From a virus (taxonomy: Duplodnaviria; Caudoviricetes), in the IMG/VR virus record IMGVR_UViG_3300035498_000877, positions 64,001 through 128,000 of that record: 64,000 bases of DNA; one strand, 5' to 3'. The translations under genes were made by a program, and so were the position numbers. Shown piece by piece: positions 835 to 45,315 of this stretch. The notes beneath the pieces were generated by a model. The model was not told where the DNA came from. It saw only the letters and a program-made list of their open reading frames with translations, and did not search any database. The first letter of the stretch is position 1, and each line of letters starts with the position of its first letter.

Positions 835-1398
835 TTAATCCTCTTTCTTTTTTTCTGTTATATTTGGATTCAAATAATATGATGGTAATTTAGCTCTATA
901 TTTTGAACATACAACAAATGTTGGTTTCCATATTAAAGATGTTGGCCATGTTCCTTCAGATTTCTGTTCATCATATGCATCTATTATATTATCAATTGAT
1001 TTTTTGGTTTGTTCTTCAACAGCACACAAAGATGAATAAGCACATGTATCACAGATATAATTTATCTTTTTCTGATATTTAATATCTAATACTTTATCTA
1101 AGCTAAAATATTCACCTTCATATCCATATTCACATGGAGCAATATATCCCTCATCATGTTCATCATCTTCAATTGGTAACATATCTTTACTGATAAATGT
1201 ACCATAGAAATCAACCAGTATATCTTTATTATATTTATATCGACATGGGGTTCCATCAGATGAAGAATCACCTAGTTCATATAAATTATATTCAGCTGGT
1301 ATACTATTTCTTTCAATTCTGCTATCGCAGAAATATCCATCTACTCCTTTAATATTCATTTTACACCAGTCTTTTATTTCCATTGCATTATATCTCAT
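835..1398 (-). CDS. LPD28-like domain protein with Cys-containing C-terminus
   Basis: FCDSRIERNSIP..YNLYEL..DG.P...ILVDFYGTFI resembles large polyvalent protein domain 28. Confidence 0.55.
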   Translation of the reverse strand: MRYNAMEIKDWCKMNIKGVDGYFCDSRIERNSIPAEYNLYELGDSSSDGTPCRYKYNKDILVDFYGTFISKDMLPIEDDEHDEGYIAPCEYGYEGEYFSLDKVLDIKYQKKINYICDTCAYSSLCAVEEQTKKSIDNIIDAYDEQKSEGTWPTSLIWKPTFVVCSKYRAKLPSYYLNPNITEKKKED

Positions 1399-1610: not shown

Positions 1611-2003
1611 ATGCATGAAACCATTAATTTGACACCTGTTATTGGAGCAATACTTGTATGTATCATATTTCCTCTTGTTGCTACTGGAGTAAAATATTTA
1701 TCAAGTAAAGCATCTGAAGAAAAGCTAGCAGAGATTTCACAATATGTACATATTGCTGTAACAGCAGCAGAACAATTATATCAGTCTGGTCAGATAAAAC
1801 GTGAAGAGCGTCATGAATATGTTGAATCAGTTTTAAAATCTAAAGGTATTGATATTGATTTAGATGAGATCGATGCATTAATAGAAAGTAATGTATTATA
1901 TTTGCCTAAATTACTATCACCTGTAGAATCTGTAACAGCTGAATTATCAGAAGTTAAAAATGATGATGAATCAACAACTTCAAAAGAAAATACAACTGAA
2001 TAA
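1611..2003 (+). CDS. Phage holin, LL-H family
   Basis: One N-terminal TM helix, AVTAAEQLY and IDALIESNV motifs; aggagg SD. Confidence 0.75.
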   Translation: MHETINLTPVIGAILVCIIFPLVATGVKYLSSKASEEKLAEISQYVHIAVTAAEQLYQSGQIKREERHEYVESVLKSKGIDIDLDEIDALIESNVLYLPKLLSPVESVTAELSEVKNDDESTTSKENTTE

Positions 2004-2035: not shown

Positions 2036-3199
2036 TTATATTTCTAAATATTCTAAATCATTTTCATGAATTAGCTCATAAATATAATTATAAAATTCAG
2101 GATCATCTTTTTTAATATTTTTAAGTTTCTTTTTAAAATTCTTATATTTATCATTTTCTGATATTTTAGAATGACATAATTCTATATCTACATATGGTTC
2201 AACAAAACCTTTCACCATATAATATATATCACAGTGATTTAGATTGCCCATGTATGATTCAATAGCTCTAGCATCAATTAATCGGATTCTATGATTTTTA
2301 TTAATTGTCATTGCTCTTCTAGTAAATCTCAGCATTGTTGATTTTCTAAGTTCTGTTCTATCCCTAAAAAATCTAAACCCGATAAAATCAAGATCTCTAC
2401 CATAATGAACACCATTTTGAATATAATCAAATCTAAATAATTGATAATTATGCTTTAATTCTAAATGTAAATTATCTTTTACATAATCTTGTATATTATA
2501 AAGCACATTATGTAATTTATATTTATTAGAATCAAATAAAGCCATATCATCCATAAATCTAGCATAGTGAGTAACTCCACACACTTCTTTAATCCAGTGA
2601 TCAAAATCTTGCATATAAAAATTAGCAAACCATTGGGACGTAAAAAAGCCTAATGGGAGACCATGATCTATGGTCCCCAATATGGCTTTAATCAATCTTA
2701 ATACTTTTGCATCTTTAATTTTAGTAGCTAATTTTTCATATAATATATCTTGATCAATAGAATCAAAGAAATGATGTATATCCATTTTAACACAATATTT
2801 TACATGCCGTGGGTCTTCTTTTATCCATTGTTTTATCTTTTTAGCACATTTATGTTGTCCTCTTCCAGGAATTGATGCATATGATAATTCATACATCTGA
2901 GACATTAATACAGGCATAATAGCTTGTATTAACATATGTTGAATTATCAATTCCATATATGTAGGAATATAAAGTTTTCGTTCTTTCTTAGTAGTTGGCT
3001 CAAATATTATTATAGCCGTATGTTCCTTAGGTTCATATGCTTCAGCATATTCAACTATTATAGGATAAAATGTATCAGGGTCATCTAAGATTTTTTGTAC
3101 TGATTCTCTGTCTCTCTTACGTTTTGAGGAATTTTTAATAGCTAATAATACATTCTCATAGCTAATTAAAGTATCCCATAAATTTTTATATGTTTTCAA
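2036..3199 (-). CDS. DGR reverse transcriptase
   Basis: KMDIHHFFDSI, GLPLGFFTSQWFAN (DGR-type SQ motif), YARFMDD, DFIGFRF; adjacent TR/VR pair. Confidence 0.95.
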   Translation of the reverse strand: MKTYKNLWDTLISYENVLLAIKNSSKRKRDRESVQKILDDPDTFYPIIVEYAEAYEPKEHTAIIIFEPTTKKERKLYIPTYMELIIQHMLIQAIMPVLMSQMYELSYASIPGRGQHKCAKKIKQWIKEDPRHVKYCVKMDIHHFFDSIDQDILYEKLATKIKDAKVLRLIKAILGTIDHGLPLGFFTSQWFANFYMQDFDHWIKEVCGVTHYARFMDDMALFDSNKYKLHNVLYNIQDYVKDNLHLELKHNYQLFRFDYIQNGVHYGRDLDFIGFRFFRDRTELRKSTMLRFTRRAMTINKNHRIRLIDARAIESYMGNLNHCDIYYMVKGFVEPYVDIELCHSKISENDKYKNFKKKLKNIKKDDPEFYNYIYELIHENDLEYLEI

Positions 3200-3375
3200 T
3201 TTTATCTTTTGTTATATAAATATCCAAAAAATGCCTAAAAATCACCTTGGCCACTTTCACCTTTCGGCTACTCACAGCATTTGTCGGGTCAATTTCCACC
3301 GATGGGTGTGGATGATACCGTGCATTATTATCACTTATTCCAATTCCAAAAGTAAGTACTAACTTACTTGTGATT
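3200..3375 (-). ncRNA. DGR spacer RNA between TR and RT (probable cDNA-priming structure)
   Basis: Relatively GC-rich non-coding segment (ccacacccatcggtgg...gtgagtagccgaaaggtgaaagtggcc) in the position of the DGR spacer. Confidence 0.55.
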
Positions 3376-3485
3376 TTTAGGAGAGCCGCCGTAGTTCCAG
3401 TTCGAGTCAGAAACCACACCAGAGAGATCCACGCACACCAAGCCCACATGAGACTCATTGTTCGTGTTGCCACCAAATTTCGCGA
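3376..3485 (-). repeat. DGR template repeat (TR)
   Basis: Aligns ungapped with 3994-4103. All 13 mismatches are T on + (A on the coding strand). Reads AKFGGNTNNESHVGLVCVDLSGVVSDSNWNYGGSPK in the VR frame. Confidence 0.95.
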
Positions 3486-3858
3486 TTCACACAGTACCAC
3501 CCAATATCGTTCCCTGAGCATTTGAAAATTAATAGCAATATACCTGGAATAAAAGATATATAATTTAATAGCTCACATGTCATAGCTCAGATCTTAGAAC
3601 ATTATTTGATATTTATATTTTTGAAACTTCATTAATAGTTACATAAATTATTTTATATAAAATAATTTTGATATAATTAGTAGAGTTCATTTACTCTAAA
3701 AGAAAATATAATATTATATAAATATTATATAAATATTATCTTAATATTTTCTCAATATAAATAAATATATTCTAAATATATCAAAATAATATATAATTAA
3801 ATAATATTGTATATTTTTAAAATATTTTTATTATGAATTTTATAAAAATAAATATAAA

Positions 3859-3936
3859 ATATCGAGGGAGATAATCTCCCTCGATATGATATCTTGATTT
3901 TTTATTATATAAGAGGGGACACAATAGTTTCCCCTC
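3859..3936 (-). promoter_or_regulatory. Two hairpins downstream of VR1 (DGR homing hairpin and/or terminator)
   Basis: atatcgagggaga-taa-tctccctcgatat and gagggga...tcccctc, about 35-110 bp past the target stop codon. Confidence 0.6.
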
Positions 3937-3969
3937 TCACTTCGTGATTCACCCTTTACAGATTTTCAT

Positions 3970-5493
3970 CTAAGCTGTCTTTTTAGGTAAACATTTAGGA
4001 GAGCCGCCGTAGGCCCAGAACGAGGCAGAAACCACACCAGAGAGATCCACGCACACCAAGCCCACAGGAGACTCAACGCTCGTGTCGCCACCAAAGGCCG
4101 CGACATCTACTTGAGAGTTGTTAAACCAAGCTCCAGATGTATAATAAGTTGACGCACTACCAGATACCTCTTTAATGAATATACCATTTTCAGTAAATGT
4201 CATACTCTTTAGATAACCACCATTAGTACCAGATGGTGTAGAACCAATATTAATATATCCATCACCAGTAAAGTTATATCCTTCTACTGTACTACCATCT
4301 TCGGTACCATAAGTAAGTTTTACTAACTGAGTACCTTTATTATTTATTAATCCATACATCCATCTCCATATATTACCCCAGAAATTCTCAATACCAAATA
4401 TTTTAACACCTGATACATTATCTGTTGTACCCCAGAATAAACCTTTTTGATCCATAGTACCTGATTTAATTTGTCCAGTATTAGAAGTAGATTTATAAGA
4501 ATTATTATTACCTCTACCAAATGCTGTTTTAGAATCAGTAGTCTTGCTAATTAATAGTGATAATAGTACTATTAATAACCAATCACTATATGTATTCATA
4601 CTCCATATATTGTCACCATTTTGATTATTTGCAGCTGCATATTCAGCAGTCTGTGTTGCATTAATATAATTGGCTACTGATAAACCGCTGATAGATCTTA
4701 ATACACTATCTACATTACTACCATCATATGCTGGCATATACATATATGGTACTTCATCGCCATAATTGTTTATATGAGCCCATGCATGATAATTAGTATC
4801 TACTTGTTTATTTGATATATAAACATTTACACTATCATCTGTTTGTAATACAAGTTTAAAATATACCTTTGGTATACCAACCATTACATTACCTGCAACA
4901 GTAGTATCTGAATTATATGCATCCTCTCCACTAATAGTTTTAGTATAATCATTTGGATCTAATAGATATGCCTCAGTACCATCATAATTCAACATGCATG
5001 GTCTAAGATTCTTTATAAAGAATGCATTACCCCAATCACCATAATCAAATACATCATTATCATAATCCATATGTGCTGCAGTATAATTTGTATTTTGGCC
5101 AATATATGATATCATACTATTAGGATCAGATGTCGATTGATTAAGATTGAATCCATATATTTCAGCATCCCTAATAGTTACTGTTCCAGTGTTTGAATCA
5201 CTATTAACCTCGATTACCATTTTGCTAATTAAATCATTGAACATTGTAGAAATATAATCATCTAATCCCAAATTATCCCTACCAAATTGCTTCTCTTCAT
5301 CAGTCAAATTTTGTTCTTCTGTAACATCTAATGCTTTATAATTTTCCACATTATCCAATCCAATATCGGATTTAGTAATATTATGTGGATTTGATGCTTG
5401 TATATGTTTTTCTATTCTAGTCTTACTATCCTTTTTACTTAATTTAACTAAATCACGAATTGAATTGGTACCAATATACTTATTATTACTCAT
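3970..5493 (-). CDS. DGR target: fibre/receptor-binding protein with C-type-lectin-like C-terminus
   Basis: N-terminal NPHNITKSDIGLDNVEN fibre motif; GIENFWGNIWRW CLec/FGE-type motif; VR at the 3' end. Confidence 0.85.
   Translation of the reverse strand: MSNNKYIGTNSIRDLVKLSKKDSKTRIEKHIQASNPHNITKSDIGLDNVENYKALDVTEEQNLTDEEKQFGRDNLGLDDYISTMFNDLISKMVIEVNSDSNTGTVTIRDAEIYGFNLNQSTSDPNSMISYIGQNTNYTAAHMDYDNDVFDYGDWGNAFFIKNLRPCMLNYDGTEAYLLDPNDYTKTISGEDAYNSDTTVAGNVMVGIPKVYFKLVLQTDDSVNVYISNKQVDTNYHAWAHINNYGDEVPYMYMPAYDGSNVDSVLRSISGLSVANYINATQTAEYAAANNQNGDNIWSMNTYSDWLLIVLLSLLISKTTDSKTAFGRGNNNSYKSTSNTGQIKSGTMDQKGLFWGTTDNVSGVKIFGIENFWGNIWRWMYGLINNKGTQLVKLTYGTEDGSTVEGYNFTGDGYINIGSTPSGTNGGYLKSMTFTENGIFIKEVSGSASTYYTSGAWFNNSQVDVAAFGGDTSVESPVGLVCVDLSGVVSASFWAYGGSPKCLPKKTA
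3994..4103 (-). repeat. DGR variable repeat VR1
   Basis: Encodes AAFGGDTSVESPVGLVCVDLSGVVSASFWAYGGSPK; A-to-N substitutions relative to TR. Confidence 0.95.
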
Positions 5494-5563: not shown

Positions 5564-7804
5564 TCATTGATTATCTACATATTTAGCTAGTGCTGCACAT
5601 TCCAATAGTTTTAATTCATACAACTCATTATCATCTATTACCAATAAAGCCCAATCATCTGGTACATTATTTATCCTTGGTATAAGATTAAAAGATTCAT
5701 ATTTCAAATATAAATTATTCCAATAATAAACATTAGCTAGTGCCTCAGCAATCATTTGTATACATGTGAATGTTGCTTTCTTATTTGGAGTTCCAAATAC
5801 TGTATGACCTAAGGCTGAACATGAAGCACAATCATTTCCAATTGGACAATCAAAACAAATATCATTAGTCTGAGATCTTCTAGTAATTGAATCGAGTAAT
5901 TTTAATACTTCTGAATCTTGTTCTCGTCCAACTAACCCATCATCAATATTTCCAATGCATAGATCTTTAACATCATTTCCTACAGATGTTGGCATATACC
6001 TGATACATGGATAGAATTGTCCATTAGGTCTTAATGCTAACATTGATCCAGTACCTCCACAGAAATTAGAATCATTATGTTTTGCTTCTTTATCCTCCTG
6101 CTTCTCATTAAATATAGATATATAAATATGCTCTAGATTATTAGATATTAAATATCGAGCAAGTTTCTTTAATTGATAATACTCAGTAGCTGCAGTATCT
6201 CTAGTCCATCCTTCCTCAAATACACAATTCATATTTATACATTTCATGTCATTCTTAATAAAGTCTACTACTGAATCATATAAATACATTATATTAGATG
6301 GAGCTAATGTCATCTTAGAATTTCTTTCAGAAGTATAATTCTTATTATAATGATTTAATGCTGCTATATCAATATCATATGATCCTTCTCCATTAGGTTG
6401 TATTCTACAAGAATCATGCAATTGTTTATTTCCATCTATTGATATATTGAATGAAATATTATGTGCATATTCTTTGAAGAATTCTTGTACTTCATCATCA
6501 AAATATTGCATACCATTAGAGCATATAGATAATCTATGTAAAGCAAACCAAGGATGATTTAATTTATAACACTGATCCAAAAAATATTCATAGATCTGTT
6601 TAATCAATTCAATTTCCAATAATGGCTCTCCACCAATAAATTCAATAATAATTGCAGGTGAATTATATCTATTTATATATCCATATTTATCAGCTAATAG
6701 ATTATCTACGAACTTCTTTGCAGTATCAAATGACATTCTATCATTAGTCTTATTAAACTGATAGCAGTATGTACAATTATGGACCACTGCATTATTAGCA
6801 ATATATGTATGACAAGTAGTTGTTAGATTACAAACAGTTCCAGAATCACATGCTTCTAATTTTTCAATCATAACACTATTGCTGGGGACGATCTGAATAC
6901 GTTTATCTATCAAGAAAACAAATAAATCATTATCATCTATAATTTGTTTAAATGGTTTAAATTCTCCATTTGAAGTTAAGAATGGATGATCATCTGTAAC
7001 TCTAAATAATTCTCTTCCTGAAGACTTGTCCTTCACAATATTTAGTGGCTCATACATACGCCACATATTTGTCACTATATATGGCTTAAAGTATTTGAAG
7101 TCATGATATTTTTTAGCATCACTTTCATCAATACCTAAAATTTCATCTCCACAACTAATATCTTCTATATTCTTTTCTGTCCAGTCAGCCATCAGAATTT
7201 TAGTTCCCATAGCAAAACAATTCAAAGAACATCTTTCAGTTACTTGGAAAGTAAAATTATGACAGAATACATCAGCATCGTCACCGCATCCAACTTGATC
7301 TTGTCTTTTATTTGAAAATAATTCTGGATATGCTTTAGCAATTGCATTATTATATGAATCAGTAGTAAATCTGAAATACTGATCTGGAAATATATCTAAT
7401 ACATCATTATCTGGTATCAAATTATCAACTGTTTGTAAAAATTCAACATCATCAGATAATAGTAACATCTTATATTTGCAATACATTGTATCGATTTCTA
7501 CATTCTGGATCAACATATCTTTGATTGGCATATCATTATTTTTAGATACTGATTGCAAAATATCAATTGCTATATTAGAAAACATTGATCTGAGCTGCAT
7601 ACTAGATTCAGTAAATTCTTTTCTCAAATCCGGAATCTTATCTAAATCATAATTGTGTTTAACCATATATTTCATTCTAAACAATAATGCGTCAATTTCA
7701 AGTGATAATCTATCTAATCTGTAATCTTTGTATTTCTCTAATACAAATTTATCAAATTGAACTTTGTATAATGTAATATCTTTTTCTAATAAATGAGTTT
7801 TCAT
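5564..7804 (-). CDS. Radical SAM/SPASM peptide maturase (Cxxx-repeat-target type), intein-containing
   Basis: After intein removal TFQVTERCSLNCTYCY; FIGGEPLL, SIDG, FCGG..ML..G.FYPC and CFDC...C..C SPASM cysteines. Confidence 0.85.
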   Translation of the reverse strand: MKTHLLEKDITLYKVQFDKFVLEKYKDYRLDRLSLEIDALLFRMKYMVKHNYDLDKIPDLRKEFTESSMQLRSMFSNIAIDILQSVSKNNDMPIKDMLIQNVEIDTMYCKYKMLLLSDDVEFLQTVDNLIPDNDVLDIFPDQYFRFTTDSYNNAIAKAYPELFSNKRQDQVGCGDDADVFCHNFTFQVTERCSLNCFAMGTKILMADWTEKNIEDISCGDEILGIDESDAKKYHDFKYFKPYIVTNMWRMYEPLNIVKDKSSGRELFRVTDDHPFLTSNGEFKPFKQIIDDNDLFVFLIDKRIQIVPSNSVMIEKLEACDSGTVCNLTTTCHTYIANNAVVHNCTYCYQFNKTNDRMSFDTAKKFVDNLLADKYGYINRYNSPAIIIEFIGGEPLLEIELIKQIYEYFLDQCYKLNHPWFALHRLSICSNGMQYFDDEVQEFFKEYAHNISFNISIDGNKQLHDSCRIQPNGEGSYDIDIAALNHYNKNYTSERNSKMTLAPSNIMYLYDSVVDFIKNDMKCINMNCVFEEGWTRDTAATEYYQLKKLARYLISNNLEHIYISIFNEKQEDKEAKHNDSNFCGGTGSMLALRPNGQFYPCIRYMPTSVGNDVKDLCIGNIDDGLVGREQDSEVLKLLDSITRRSQTNDICFDCPIGNDCASCSALGHTVFGTPNKKATFTCIQMIAEALANVYYWNNLYLKYESFNLIPRINNVPDDWALLVIDDNELYELKLLECAALAKYVDNQ
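6776..7219 (-). mobile_element. Mini-intein (148 aa, no endonuclease domain)
   Basis: Starts CFAMGTKILMAD, block B TDDHPF, ends YIANNAVVHN followed by +1 Cys. Confidence 0.92.
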
Positions 7805-43701: not shown

Positions 43702-43796
43702 TTTTTACCAATAAATAAAGCTCTATTAGTTATTAAATAACACAAAATAAATACTAGAAAGGAGATATACTATTATGAGCAAGAAGTACTTGGGGG
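43702..43796 (+). repeat. 95-bp inverted repeat, left arm
   Basis: Perfect reverse complement of 45294-45388. Confidence 0.92.
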
Positions 43797-45136
43797 GGGG
43801 TTCATTAAAATCCCTAATACAAACTATATTAACAACATTTCCAACAAGTGAAATTACTGAAGATGAAATAAATGATATGTACTATCCACCAAATGTATAT
43901 GGTTTTAGTATAGATCAAACAGCAACCAACTCAGATAGTGCTATATCATATATTGGGCAGAATGTAAATTATACTGCAGCACAAAAGACAGATGCTTACG
44001 TATTTGATTATGGGGATTGGAAAGATGCATTCTTTATAAAGAATCTTAGACCATGTATGTTGAATTATGATGGTACTGAGGCATATCTATTAGATCCAAA
44101 TGATTATAGTAAGAAATTAGATAGTACTGATTCAGATATAGATAATAGTGATTTTGCTGGAAATGTAATGGTAGGAATACCAAAAGTATATTTTAAGATA
44201 GTTAAAGTGGATGATGATCATATCAATTTTTATTTTTCAGATAAGAAAGTAGATGATAACTATCATTGTTGGGCTCATATAAATAACTATGGTGATGAAG
44301 TACCATATTATTATTTATCAATATATTTTGGGCAACTTATTGATGGAAAAATAAGATCATTTTATAATTCTAATGGACGTGAAACTAATTTTAACTTCGA
44401 TACAGGTATAAATGATTCTGGTATAGTTGATTATTATGAAAAAGGTAACAATATTAAAGATTATGCTATGGCAAATAATATAAATGGTAATAATATTTGG
44501 GGTTTAGAAACATATAGTAGTTGGTTATTAATCACGTTATTGTCTATTTTGATATTTAAGGATTCTGATATATCGGATATATATCGTCCATTTGGTTCAA
44601 CATGCATCTGGGGTAATTATCCAAAACTTATTAATGGATTTTTATTTAATATTCAGAATAGACAATTTCTAGTAAAACTTACATATGGTACTCAAGATGG
44701 TAGTACTGTAGAAGGATATAATTTTGCTGGAGATGGATATATTGAAGGCCCTATATTATCTTCTGCATTTGATCACCAAGATGACTGCAATAATACATAT
44801 TGTACTGCTCATGTTAACACTGACTATGGAGTTGATATAGGAATAACCGGTCGAGTGTCAAAAATGAAATTCACTGAGCAAGGTATTATGTTTCCAGTGG
44901 AAAGTATGCACTTTGAAGATGATACTGCGTATCGTTTTACAATATTTGCAGAATATGGTGATGTGTATGGTGACCCAATTACAGATAGAAATACGTTATA
45001 TTGTCTCGCTAATGGAAATTGCGCACTTAGCAGTAACGAAAAAATACCATATAATATGATATTTATTGGGAGTATATTTACTAATTTTTATTGTAAAACA
45101 TCTTTAATTTGTCTACCAAAAATCCAGACAAAATAA
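43775..45136 (+). CDS. Paralog of the DGR target protein; G9 tract at 43792-43800 (in frame)
   Basis: Shares YIGQN.NYTAA, FFIKNLRPCMLNYDGTEAYLLDPNDY, VKLTYGT.DGSTVEGYNF and terminal CLPK with 3970..5493. Confidence 0.85.
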   Translation: MSKKYLGGGSLKSLIQTILTTFPTSEITEDEINDMYYPPNVYGFSIDQTATNSDSAISYIGQNVNYTAAQKTDAYVFDYGDWKDAFFIKNLRPCMLNYDGTEAYLLDPNDYSKKLDSTDSDIDNSDFAGNVMVGIPKVYFKIVKVDDDHINFYFSDKKVDDNYHCWAHINNYGDEVPYYYLSIYFGQLIDGKIRSFYNSNGRETNFNFDTGINDSGIVDYYEKGNNIKDYAMANNINGNNIWGLETYSSWLLITLLSILIFKDSDISDIYRPFGSTCIWGNYPKLINGFLFNIQNRQFLVKLTYGTQDGSTVEGYNFAGDGYIEGPILSSAFDHQDDCNNTYCTAHVNTDYGVDIGITGRVSKMKFTEQGIMFPVESMHFEDDTAYRFTIFAEYGDVYGDPITDRNTLYCLANGNCALSSNEKIPYNMIFIGSIFTNFYCKTSLICLPKIQTK

Positions 45137-45191: not shown

Positions 45192-45315
45192 TTAACTAAC
45201 TGATTTGGGTAGACATTTAGGAGAGCCGCCGCAGGGCCAGCCCGAGCTAGAAACCACAACACCGAGAACCACGCACAACAAGCCCACACGACGCCCCCAA
45301 GTACTTCTTGCTCAT
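45192..45315 (-). pseudogene. Internally deleted DGR target: MSKKYLG start fused out of frame to a VR copy (VR2, 45216-45296)
   Basis: VR frame reads RVGLLCVVLGVVVSSSGWPCGGSPKCLPKSVS*; 62/75 identity to TR over 45216-45290. Confidence 0.85.

Follow-up and report, generated by a model that had tools for sequence, protein, structure and literature searches.

Most descriptions of diversity-generating retroelements (DGRs) concern temperate phages and bacterial chromosomes. The prototype, in the genome of the 42-kb temperate podovirus BPP-1, has the order mtd-avd-TR-Sp-brt, where TR is the template repeat, Sp the spacer and brt the reverse transcriptase (RT) gene. Its Avd protein is essential in BPP-1 and poorly conserved (PMC5758913). 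Among 372 curated DGRs, 29% were found to have no accessory gene at all (Architecture A), one lineage was without avd, and profile searches gave no remote avd for the accessory-free cassettes (Wu et al., 2018; Nucleic Acids Research 46:11, PMC5758913). Here, a DGR that resembles this second group is described from a 64-kb window, positions 64,001-128,000 of the IMG/VR virus record IMGVR_UViG_3300035498_000877, to which all coordinates refer unless marked "genome". The record comprises 289,234 bp with 29.8% GC and is 100% complete according to CheckV. Judged from its sequence, the cassette is a genuine DGR with the order target, TR, spacer RNA and RT, and we consider it probable that it works without an accessory protein, through a mechanism otherwise like that of BPP-1.

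The evidence for this assignment begins with the repeats. On the minus strand, a target gene carrying the variable repeat (VR) near its end is followed by a long gap, the TR, a 176-nt non-coding spacer and the RT gene (Table 1). The gapless alignment of TR and VR shows 88% identity, and all 13 mismatches fall on TR adenines, with none at the 88 non-A positions. Given 22 adenines in the 110 nt of the TR, the hypergeometric probability of 13 out of 13 is 1.9e-11. Immediately 5' of the repeat, where the homology runs out, there are two more mismatches at A sites. All but one of the 13 changes affect codon positions 1-2, the TR codons hit being AAC, AAT, AAA, CAT and GAC, and the 14 A-containing codons of the TR would allow ~5e12 protein variants. 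At the 3' end, the homology closes with a GC-rich stretch common to both copies and TAAA, past which the sequences part, with TGTTTACC in the VR and AATCACAAG in the TR. This is a boundary of the initiation of mutagenic homing (IMH/IMH*) type, and a comparable GC-rich TR end is present in relatives. When the whole 289-kb genome was scanned with A-degenerate TR patterns, only the TR, the VR and one short relic (45216-45290) were recovered.

The RT, the only one in the 289-kb genome, belongs to the DGR clade by its [LIV]GxxxSQ motif 4, its xxDD box and its nearest structural relative. Its best sequence match in the PDB is the Bordetella bRT (8ub7_A, E 2e-28), which aligns over the full length and outranks the RTs of group II introns, and its AlphaFold2 model, with a predicted local distance difference test (pLDDT) score of 86.7, superposes on 8ub7_A with a target-normalised TM-score of 0.89 and a root-mean-square deviation of 2.8 Å. 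All its NCBIfam matches to other RT classes lay below their cut-offs. In an alignment with 15 relatives, the catalytic residues D217/D218 and the SQ motif are invariant, and in a maximum-likelihood tree the jumbo-phage RT is nested within the clade of these relatives (support 94/90), with the BPP-1 Brt outside. A C-terminal extension of ~50 aa past the end of bRT is common to the clade and is modelled here as two lower-confidence helices. The TTG start aligns with Met1 of the relatives, several of which also begin with TTG. With 26% GC, the gene has adopted the composition of the phage, yet all 387 codons stay open.

The target gene encodes a tail protein, and after the VR only seven codons are left to the stop. 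The AlphaFold2 model of the protein has pLDDT >90 over most of residues 110-507, and its top Foldseek matches were TaqVP (5vf4, E 6.5e-12) and Mtd, followed by formylglycine-generating enzymes (FGE) and TvpA, which points to a C-type-lectin fold for the body of the target. The model thus indicates that residues 110-507 form a C-type-lectin-fold receptor-binding body, so that the VR stands at the 3' end of a reading frame for a variation-tolerant fold. Residues 1-110 form a low-confidence, partly helical adaptor that is common to other fibre genes of the phage and 60-72% identical to two other genome loci. An initial annotation of the window had reported the gapless repeats with mismatches at TR adenines alone, the position of the VR at the C-terminus of a lectin-like fibre protein, and an RT with the SQ motif but FMDD in its catalytic box. 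Each of these points was re-derived in the present analysis, the two RT motifs reading LGFFTSQ and RFMDD.

The genomic setting is that of an AR9/PBS1-like jumbo phage, with a genome above 200 kb and split multisubunit RNA polymerase (RNAP) genes related to those of AR9 and PBS1. In the whole record, beta-type RNAP subunits are encoded by genes of PHROG 3295 and PHROG 3015, whose best named matches are from Staphylococcus phage Machias, Bacillus phages BpSp, AR9 and PBS1, and Yersinia phage phiR1-37, at ~25% identity. Six-frame searches of the 289-kb genome gave neither a tyrosine integrase nor a serine recombinase, and from its gene content the phage is apparently virulent, in agreement with the earlier description of a lytic-type jumbo phage with RNAP genes. 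In this phage, the lectin body of the DGR target is joined to the phage's own fibre adaptor. The genome contains four full-length paralogues of the lectin body and a truncated one, with identities of 49-68%; each of the five ends in (K)CLPK and is without a match to the TR. Several of them, unlike the DGR target, open with the poly-G start module MSKKYLGGG, and in the paralogue at 168 kb adaptor and body are in separate reading frames. The relic found in the genome scan shares the VR1-type 3' flank TAAATGTyTACCyAAA and is fused directly to the ribosome-binding site and start module (MSKKYLG) of a fibre gene. It has five non-A and eight A-site mismatches to the TR, has no gene body, and lies between two plus-strand genes; from these features, it is read as a dead second target.

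Table 1. Coordinates of the DGR cassette and of related features (window positions unless marked "genome")
Feature	Position	Strand	Remarks
DGR reverse transcriptase	2036..3199	-	387 aa; TTG start; LGFFTSQ, RFMDD; RVT_1 8.6e-17
Spacer (Sp) of DGR RNA	3200..3375	-	8-bp hairpin, P1, P2, TR-pairing segment
Template repeat (TR)	3376..3485	-	52% GC; 22 adenines; ends GGCGGCTCTCC then TAAA
Extreme A/T tract	3530..3858		11-nt phased repeats AAATATTATAT; between VR and TR
Intrinsic terminator, strong	3859..3887	-	13-bp stem then T-run; between target gene and TR
GC-rich inverted repeat	3911..3940	-	8-bp stem AGAGGGGA/TCCCCTCT, 53 nt downstream of VR; read from sequence
DGR target gene	3970..5493	-	507 aa; PHROG 5302 tail protein, E 1.1e-77
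Variable repeat (VR)	3994..4103	-	Residues 464-500 of target; 61% GC within 30% GC gene
Lectin-body paralogues	window 43775-45136; genome 21359-22645, 168014-169189, 281702-282889, 287934-289094		
Putative fossil second VR	45216..45315	-	Last ~75 nt of VR and VR1's 3' flank, fused to fibre start

The absence of Avd was examined with profiles for which the BPP-1 genome served as positive control. In six-frame searches of the 289-kb genome, no match was obtained with PF22296, NF033474, TIGR02436 or PF05635. In the control, the BPP-1 Avd was found by PF22296 (2e-37) and NF033474 (2e-32); TIGR02436 was used without such a control. PF05635 (23S_rRNA_IVP) missed the prototype Avd in a six-frame search even at E up to 10 and was dropped as an Avd test; a null result with this profile is therefore uninformative, and claims of "no Avd" that are based on it alone are unsafe. 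For HRDC, no six-frame match was found in the genome, and the cassette has no open reading frame (ORF) able to encode MSL or CH1, for neither of which a profile search was made. Between target and TR (3486-3969, 20.5% GC), the longest ORFs are 42, 35 and 25 aa, and no conserved ORF was found between target and RT. The layout is thus that of the accessory-free Architecture A1 and not of the BPP-1-type Architecture B with Avd. The initial annotation had seen no Avd-sized ORF in this A/T-rich gap and no visible avd. The first statement holds, and the second now extends to the whole genome with the two profiles that pass the BPP-1 control. Its proposal of an accessory-less or trans-assisted DGR is supported as regards the lack of a recognisable Avd, but not as a feature of this phage: since the accessory-free layout has been published (PMC5758913) and extends across the clade, as set out below, the absence of Avd is no peculiarity of the jumbo phage.

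Scans with the RT protein detected 23 related loci in IMG/VR and 52 in metagenome contigs, with RTs at most ~50% identical to the one described here. No near-identical phage was found in these scans, and no other copy of the phage was recovered with a TR/spacer junction pattern in IMG/VR or with a 28-nt pattern of the VR 3' flank in metagenome contigs. A TR/VR pair was present in 22 of the IMG/VR relatives, and in 15 of these the starts of VR and TR are ~200-280 nt apart. The distance from TR to RT was measured in 19 relatives and came to 124-186 nt in all but one. Such short gaps leave no space for an accessory gene. Five of the 18 searchable records of relatives are classed as proviruses by IMG/VR. 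The nearest named cassettes are those of the Butyrivibrio phages Arawn, Idris and Closwp03, with an identity of 40.5% for the RT and 31% for the target, followed by Faecalibacterium phage FP_Epona, Lactobacillus phage LBR48 and Psychrobacillus phage Perkons. All of these share the gene order and the absence of avd, and Arawn also shares the core of the spacer RNA. Where the target lies on the stretch fetched, these named relatives show the target, a gap of 375-445 nt and the RT, with no avd annotated, and when PF22296 and NF033474 were run on the complete genomes of four of them (Arawn, FP_Epona, LBR48 and Perkons), no Avd was detected. They differ from the present phage in being 28-137-kb phages, several of them temperate, with an identity of at most ~44% and without the A/T tract. 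The cassette has a common ancestry with the compact, Avd-less ones found in small phages of Clostridia type, which are often temperate. In addition, a 110-kb contig (L025) carries a target homologue 52% identical to this one, with no RT on the fragment examined.

Three more distant relatives depart from the minimal layout. A conserved ORF of 104-114 aa without a Pfam match lies between VR and TR in L019 (1567-1881), L021 (5369-5713) and L023 (5408-5722), and may be either an undescribed accessory gene or an unrelated phage gene. These ORFs were considered as Avd and rejected, as they are not Avd-like; no homologue of the L019/L021 ORF was found in the jumbo-phage genome, nor any of the L023 one. 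A 124-aa ORF in a further relative, L020, was likewise discarded as an accessory gene, as it proved to be the N-terminus of a split RT.

The spacer has the properties expected of a structured RNA that pairs with the 3' end of the TR. An 8-bp hairpin (3369..3350) adjoins the TR, and two further helices, P1 (3308..3305 with 3300..3297) and P2 (3278..3274 with 3254..3250), were evaluated in a core alignment (A5) of 13 cassettes, namely the jumbo phage and 12 others, Arawn included. P1 is paired in 96% and P2 in 90% of cases, with changes on both sides in 9 of the 14 pairs tested, and overall 87% of cells are paired, compared with 31-47% when the partners are slid. An outer helix, P0 (UCC with GGA), was rejected as unsupported, being 68% paired with no compensatory change. 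No Rfam family matched the spacer. Just 3' of P2, the segment 3245..3234 is complementary over 12 bp to the TR 3' boundary (3381..3370), a length reached by none of 300 shuffles. This TR:Sp duplex occupies the same position as the template:primer duplex of BPP-1 (10.1101/2023.10.23.563531), and by that analogy it would prime cDNA synthesis. Here it is formed by CCUAAAAAUCAC with GUGAUUUUUAGG, whereas most relatives have UCUUAUC with GAUAAGA; other versions are found in L011 (UCUUGAAUC with GAUUCAAGA) and L013 (AUCUUGUAG with CUACAAGAU), and the sequences differ also in L005 and L010. As the two strands have both changed relative to the relatives, the RNA appears to have been under selection since the jumbo-phage lineage diverged.

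Set against the described systems, the cassette is most like Architecture A1 and the avd-less Lineage 3 of Wu et al. (2018), a likeness of layout: it has a TR-RT core with an adjacent upstream target, has no avd, HRDC or other cassette ORF, and carries the VR at the C-terminal end of a lectin fold. With BPP-1 it shares the adenine-specific flow from TR to VR, a bRT-related RT, an Mtd-like lectin-fold target, a GC-rich TR end and a spacer that pairs with the 3' end of the TR. It differs from BPP-1 in having no Avd, in the C-terminal extension and FMDD box of its RT, in lacking a GC-rich hairpin of 8 bp with a GRNA loop in the 34 bp next to the VR, and in being carried by a 289-kb, apparently virulent phage. 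It also resembles the DGRs of crAss-like phages, in which a tail fibre is diversified in a large, rarely integrated phage with its own RNAP (for example crAssphage LMMB, PMC7290462; zeta crAss-like phages, PMC12386605). These phages belong to another order and have another type of RNAP, and their RTs are only ~30-33% identical to this one. According to the abstract on crAssphage LMMB, its cassette contains "all the essential elements" (PMC7290462).

From these parallels, a course of retrohoming can be proposed. A transcript over the TR and the ~175-nt spacer would fold into the conserved structure, in which the 3' part of the spacer would pair with the TR 3' boundary. The RT would then copy the TR into cDNA, misincorporating opposite template adenines, and the cDNA would take the place of the VR in the 3'-terminal part of the tail-protein gene. 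In this way, up to 14 codons on the C-type-lectin fold could be re-randomised, with the range of possible proteins given above. We infer the priming mechanism, the independence from a helper and present-day activity from sequence, models and analogy. The DGR is real and probably functional, since an intact RT frame adapted to the AT-rich phage, conserved catalytic residues, a selected RNA and the lack of non-A mismatches together favour a functional element, and it is likely to be active at present.

Several features weigh against this reading. The phenylalanine in place of the tyrosine of YMDD is unique to the jumbo-phage RT, all 15 aligned relatives having YMDD, and the RT branch is long (1.3, compared with a median of 0.61). 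The translation signals are weak, the TTG start of the RT having no evident Shine-Dalgarno sequence, and so is the hairpin at the target site: ~26 nt past the VR there is only a 4-bp AGAT-GAAA-ATCT hairpin, where relatives have a GC-rich one. Furthermore, a strong terminator, as predicted from sequence, separates the target from the TR, and no promoter for TR-RT was identified. Finally, given the poor conservation of Avd proteins, the profiles could miss a divergent helper.

The first alternative is that the element is a fossil, which wrote the VR in the past and whose retrohoming has since ceased in this phage lineage. The substituted catalytic box and long branch, the RT start and the hairpin just mentioned would all suit a decaying element, as would the terminator and 330-nt A/T tract between VR and TR and the fact that the second target is already dead. 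The comparison with that relic, however, argues the other way: the VR has no non-A mismatch to the TR in 110 nt, compared with five in the ~75 nt of the dead VR2. The RT frame has remained intact at 26% GC, where a random open frame of 387 codons has an estimated probability of ~1e-15. P1 and P2 have been kept, and the 12-bp duplex has changed on both strands, in line with selection on the RNA after divergence. TTG starts are common in the RT clade, and phenylalanine occupies this box position in RTs known to be active, such as LINE-1 ORF2p with FADD. On balance, a fossil is unlikely.

The second alternative keeps the element active but assigns it help in trans, from an unrecognised Avd-like or other nucleic-acid-binding protein encoded elsewhere in the genome or by the host. 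The dependence of BPP-1 on a poorly conserved Avd speaks for such a helper, and profile searches can evidently fail, PF05635 having missed BPP-1's own Avd; the phage genome has many genes of unknown function, and the distant relatives L019, L021 and L023 carry their small conserved ORF between VR and TR. Nevertheless, neither the four Avd-type profiles nor HRDC gave a six-frame match in the genome, the L019/L021 ORF has no homologue here, and the searches of Wu et al. (2018) for a remote avd were likewise negative for accessory-free cassettes. The RT clade also includes small complete phages, such as Arawn with 31 kb, in which no Avd was found either, so that a helper specific to the jumbo phage is not needed to explain the layout, and help in trans is considered quite improbable.

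A third candidate, scarcely credible, is that Avd is replaced by the product of a 111-aa ORF (3186-3521, minus strand), overlooked in the earlier reading, which is Avd-sized and, overlapping TR and spacer, is placed like avd in an avd-TR-RT layout; it matches no family in Pfam or NCBIfam, even at E up to 10, is a Trp/Cys-rich read of the GC-rich TR in a frame that differs from that of the VR and whose spurious equivalent recurs in the VR (3966-4106), lies in a region constrained as RNA, and is not conserved in relatives (at this position the reading frame has 56 aa in L008 and 91 aa in L009, two near-identical cassettes), and it was rejected as a spurious gene. The accessory-free, BPP-1-like DGR thus remains the preferred reading.

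What distinguishes the cassette from its close relatives of Architecture A1 is the stretch between the repeats. The VR-TR gap is ~510 nt here, compared with ~100-170 nt in close relatives, and contains the terminator and the extreme A/T tract. The core of the tract (3651-3850, 7.5% GC) is the lowest 200-nt window in the 289-kb genome, the next lowest having 16.5% GC. Cumulative GC skew gave no sign of a replication origin at the tract. In searches for regulatory signals, neither sigma-70-like sites (27 found, 31 expected) nor the AR9/MarsHill early motif TATATTAT (39 found, 39 expected) were enriched. The Shine-Dalgarno sequence was the only signal that k-mer enrichment yielded upstream of genes, and a further 7-mer, ATATAGT, gave nothing relevant to the cassette. 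It is possible, if rather doubtful, that the cassette has been rebuilt for a self-transcribing jumbo phage, in that the target is terminated and TR-Sp-RT forms a separate unit behind the A/T tract, which may then be a phage-RNAP promoter or a DNA-unwinding element. The DGR would be the always-on fine-tuning arm of a two-tier receptor-binding system, in which the other members of a six-member lectin-fibre family would be switched by poly-G slippage. If this proposal were true, it would represent the first documented Avd-independent retrohoming under phage RNAP control, coupled to phase variation.

Downstream of the VR, the locus also appears to depart from the BPP-1 type, in which a hairpin or cruciform with a GC-rich stem of 7-10 bp and a GRNA tetraloop lies 4-34 bp downstream (Guo et al., 2011, PMC3240598). 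The GC-rich inverted repeat found here, a possible cruciform or terminator, lies outside this range and has no GRNA tetraloop, and another GC-rich one, likewise with a different loop, is located 107 nt downstream. In relatives (L004, L005, L010-L012, L014, L016 and L022), a GC-rich hairpin stands 17-25 nt downstream of the VR, and its tetraloop (GTAG, GTAA, ATAG or CTGA) holds all or part of the stop codon of the target, an arrangement reminiscent of BPP-1, where the hairpin overlaps the stop codon of mtd.

Altogether, this is an ordinary DGR, of which only the setting in a jumbo phage is unusual. No description of a DGR in a jumbo phage was found in the literature, the jumbo-phage reviews retrieved do not mention DGRs, and a survey of 224 jumbo phages recorded no DGR-type lectin (FGS) domains (PMC7824862). 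The locus suggests that a giant phage of virulent type with its own RNAPs can hold a compact, helper-free DGR beside putatively phase-variable fibre paralogues. As the mechanism is textbook knowledge and the architecture has been published, the gain is incremental. The class of Avd-less DGRs is large, and how its members prime without Avd is the question addressed by the spacer RNA, whose covarying helices and TR:Sp duplex offer new handles on the priming of cDNA synthesis in such elements.

The gene immediately upstream of the DGR target (5564-7804, minus strand), which shares its orientation, encodes a 746-aa radical-SAM protein split by a Hint/intein domain. Downstream of the RT gene, and converging on it, lies the gene of a Holin_LLH-family holin (1611-2003, plus strand), the two sharing a bidirectional terminator at 2002-2033, and the holin gene is adjoined by that of an LPD28-domain protein (835-1398, minus strand).

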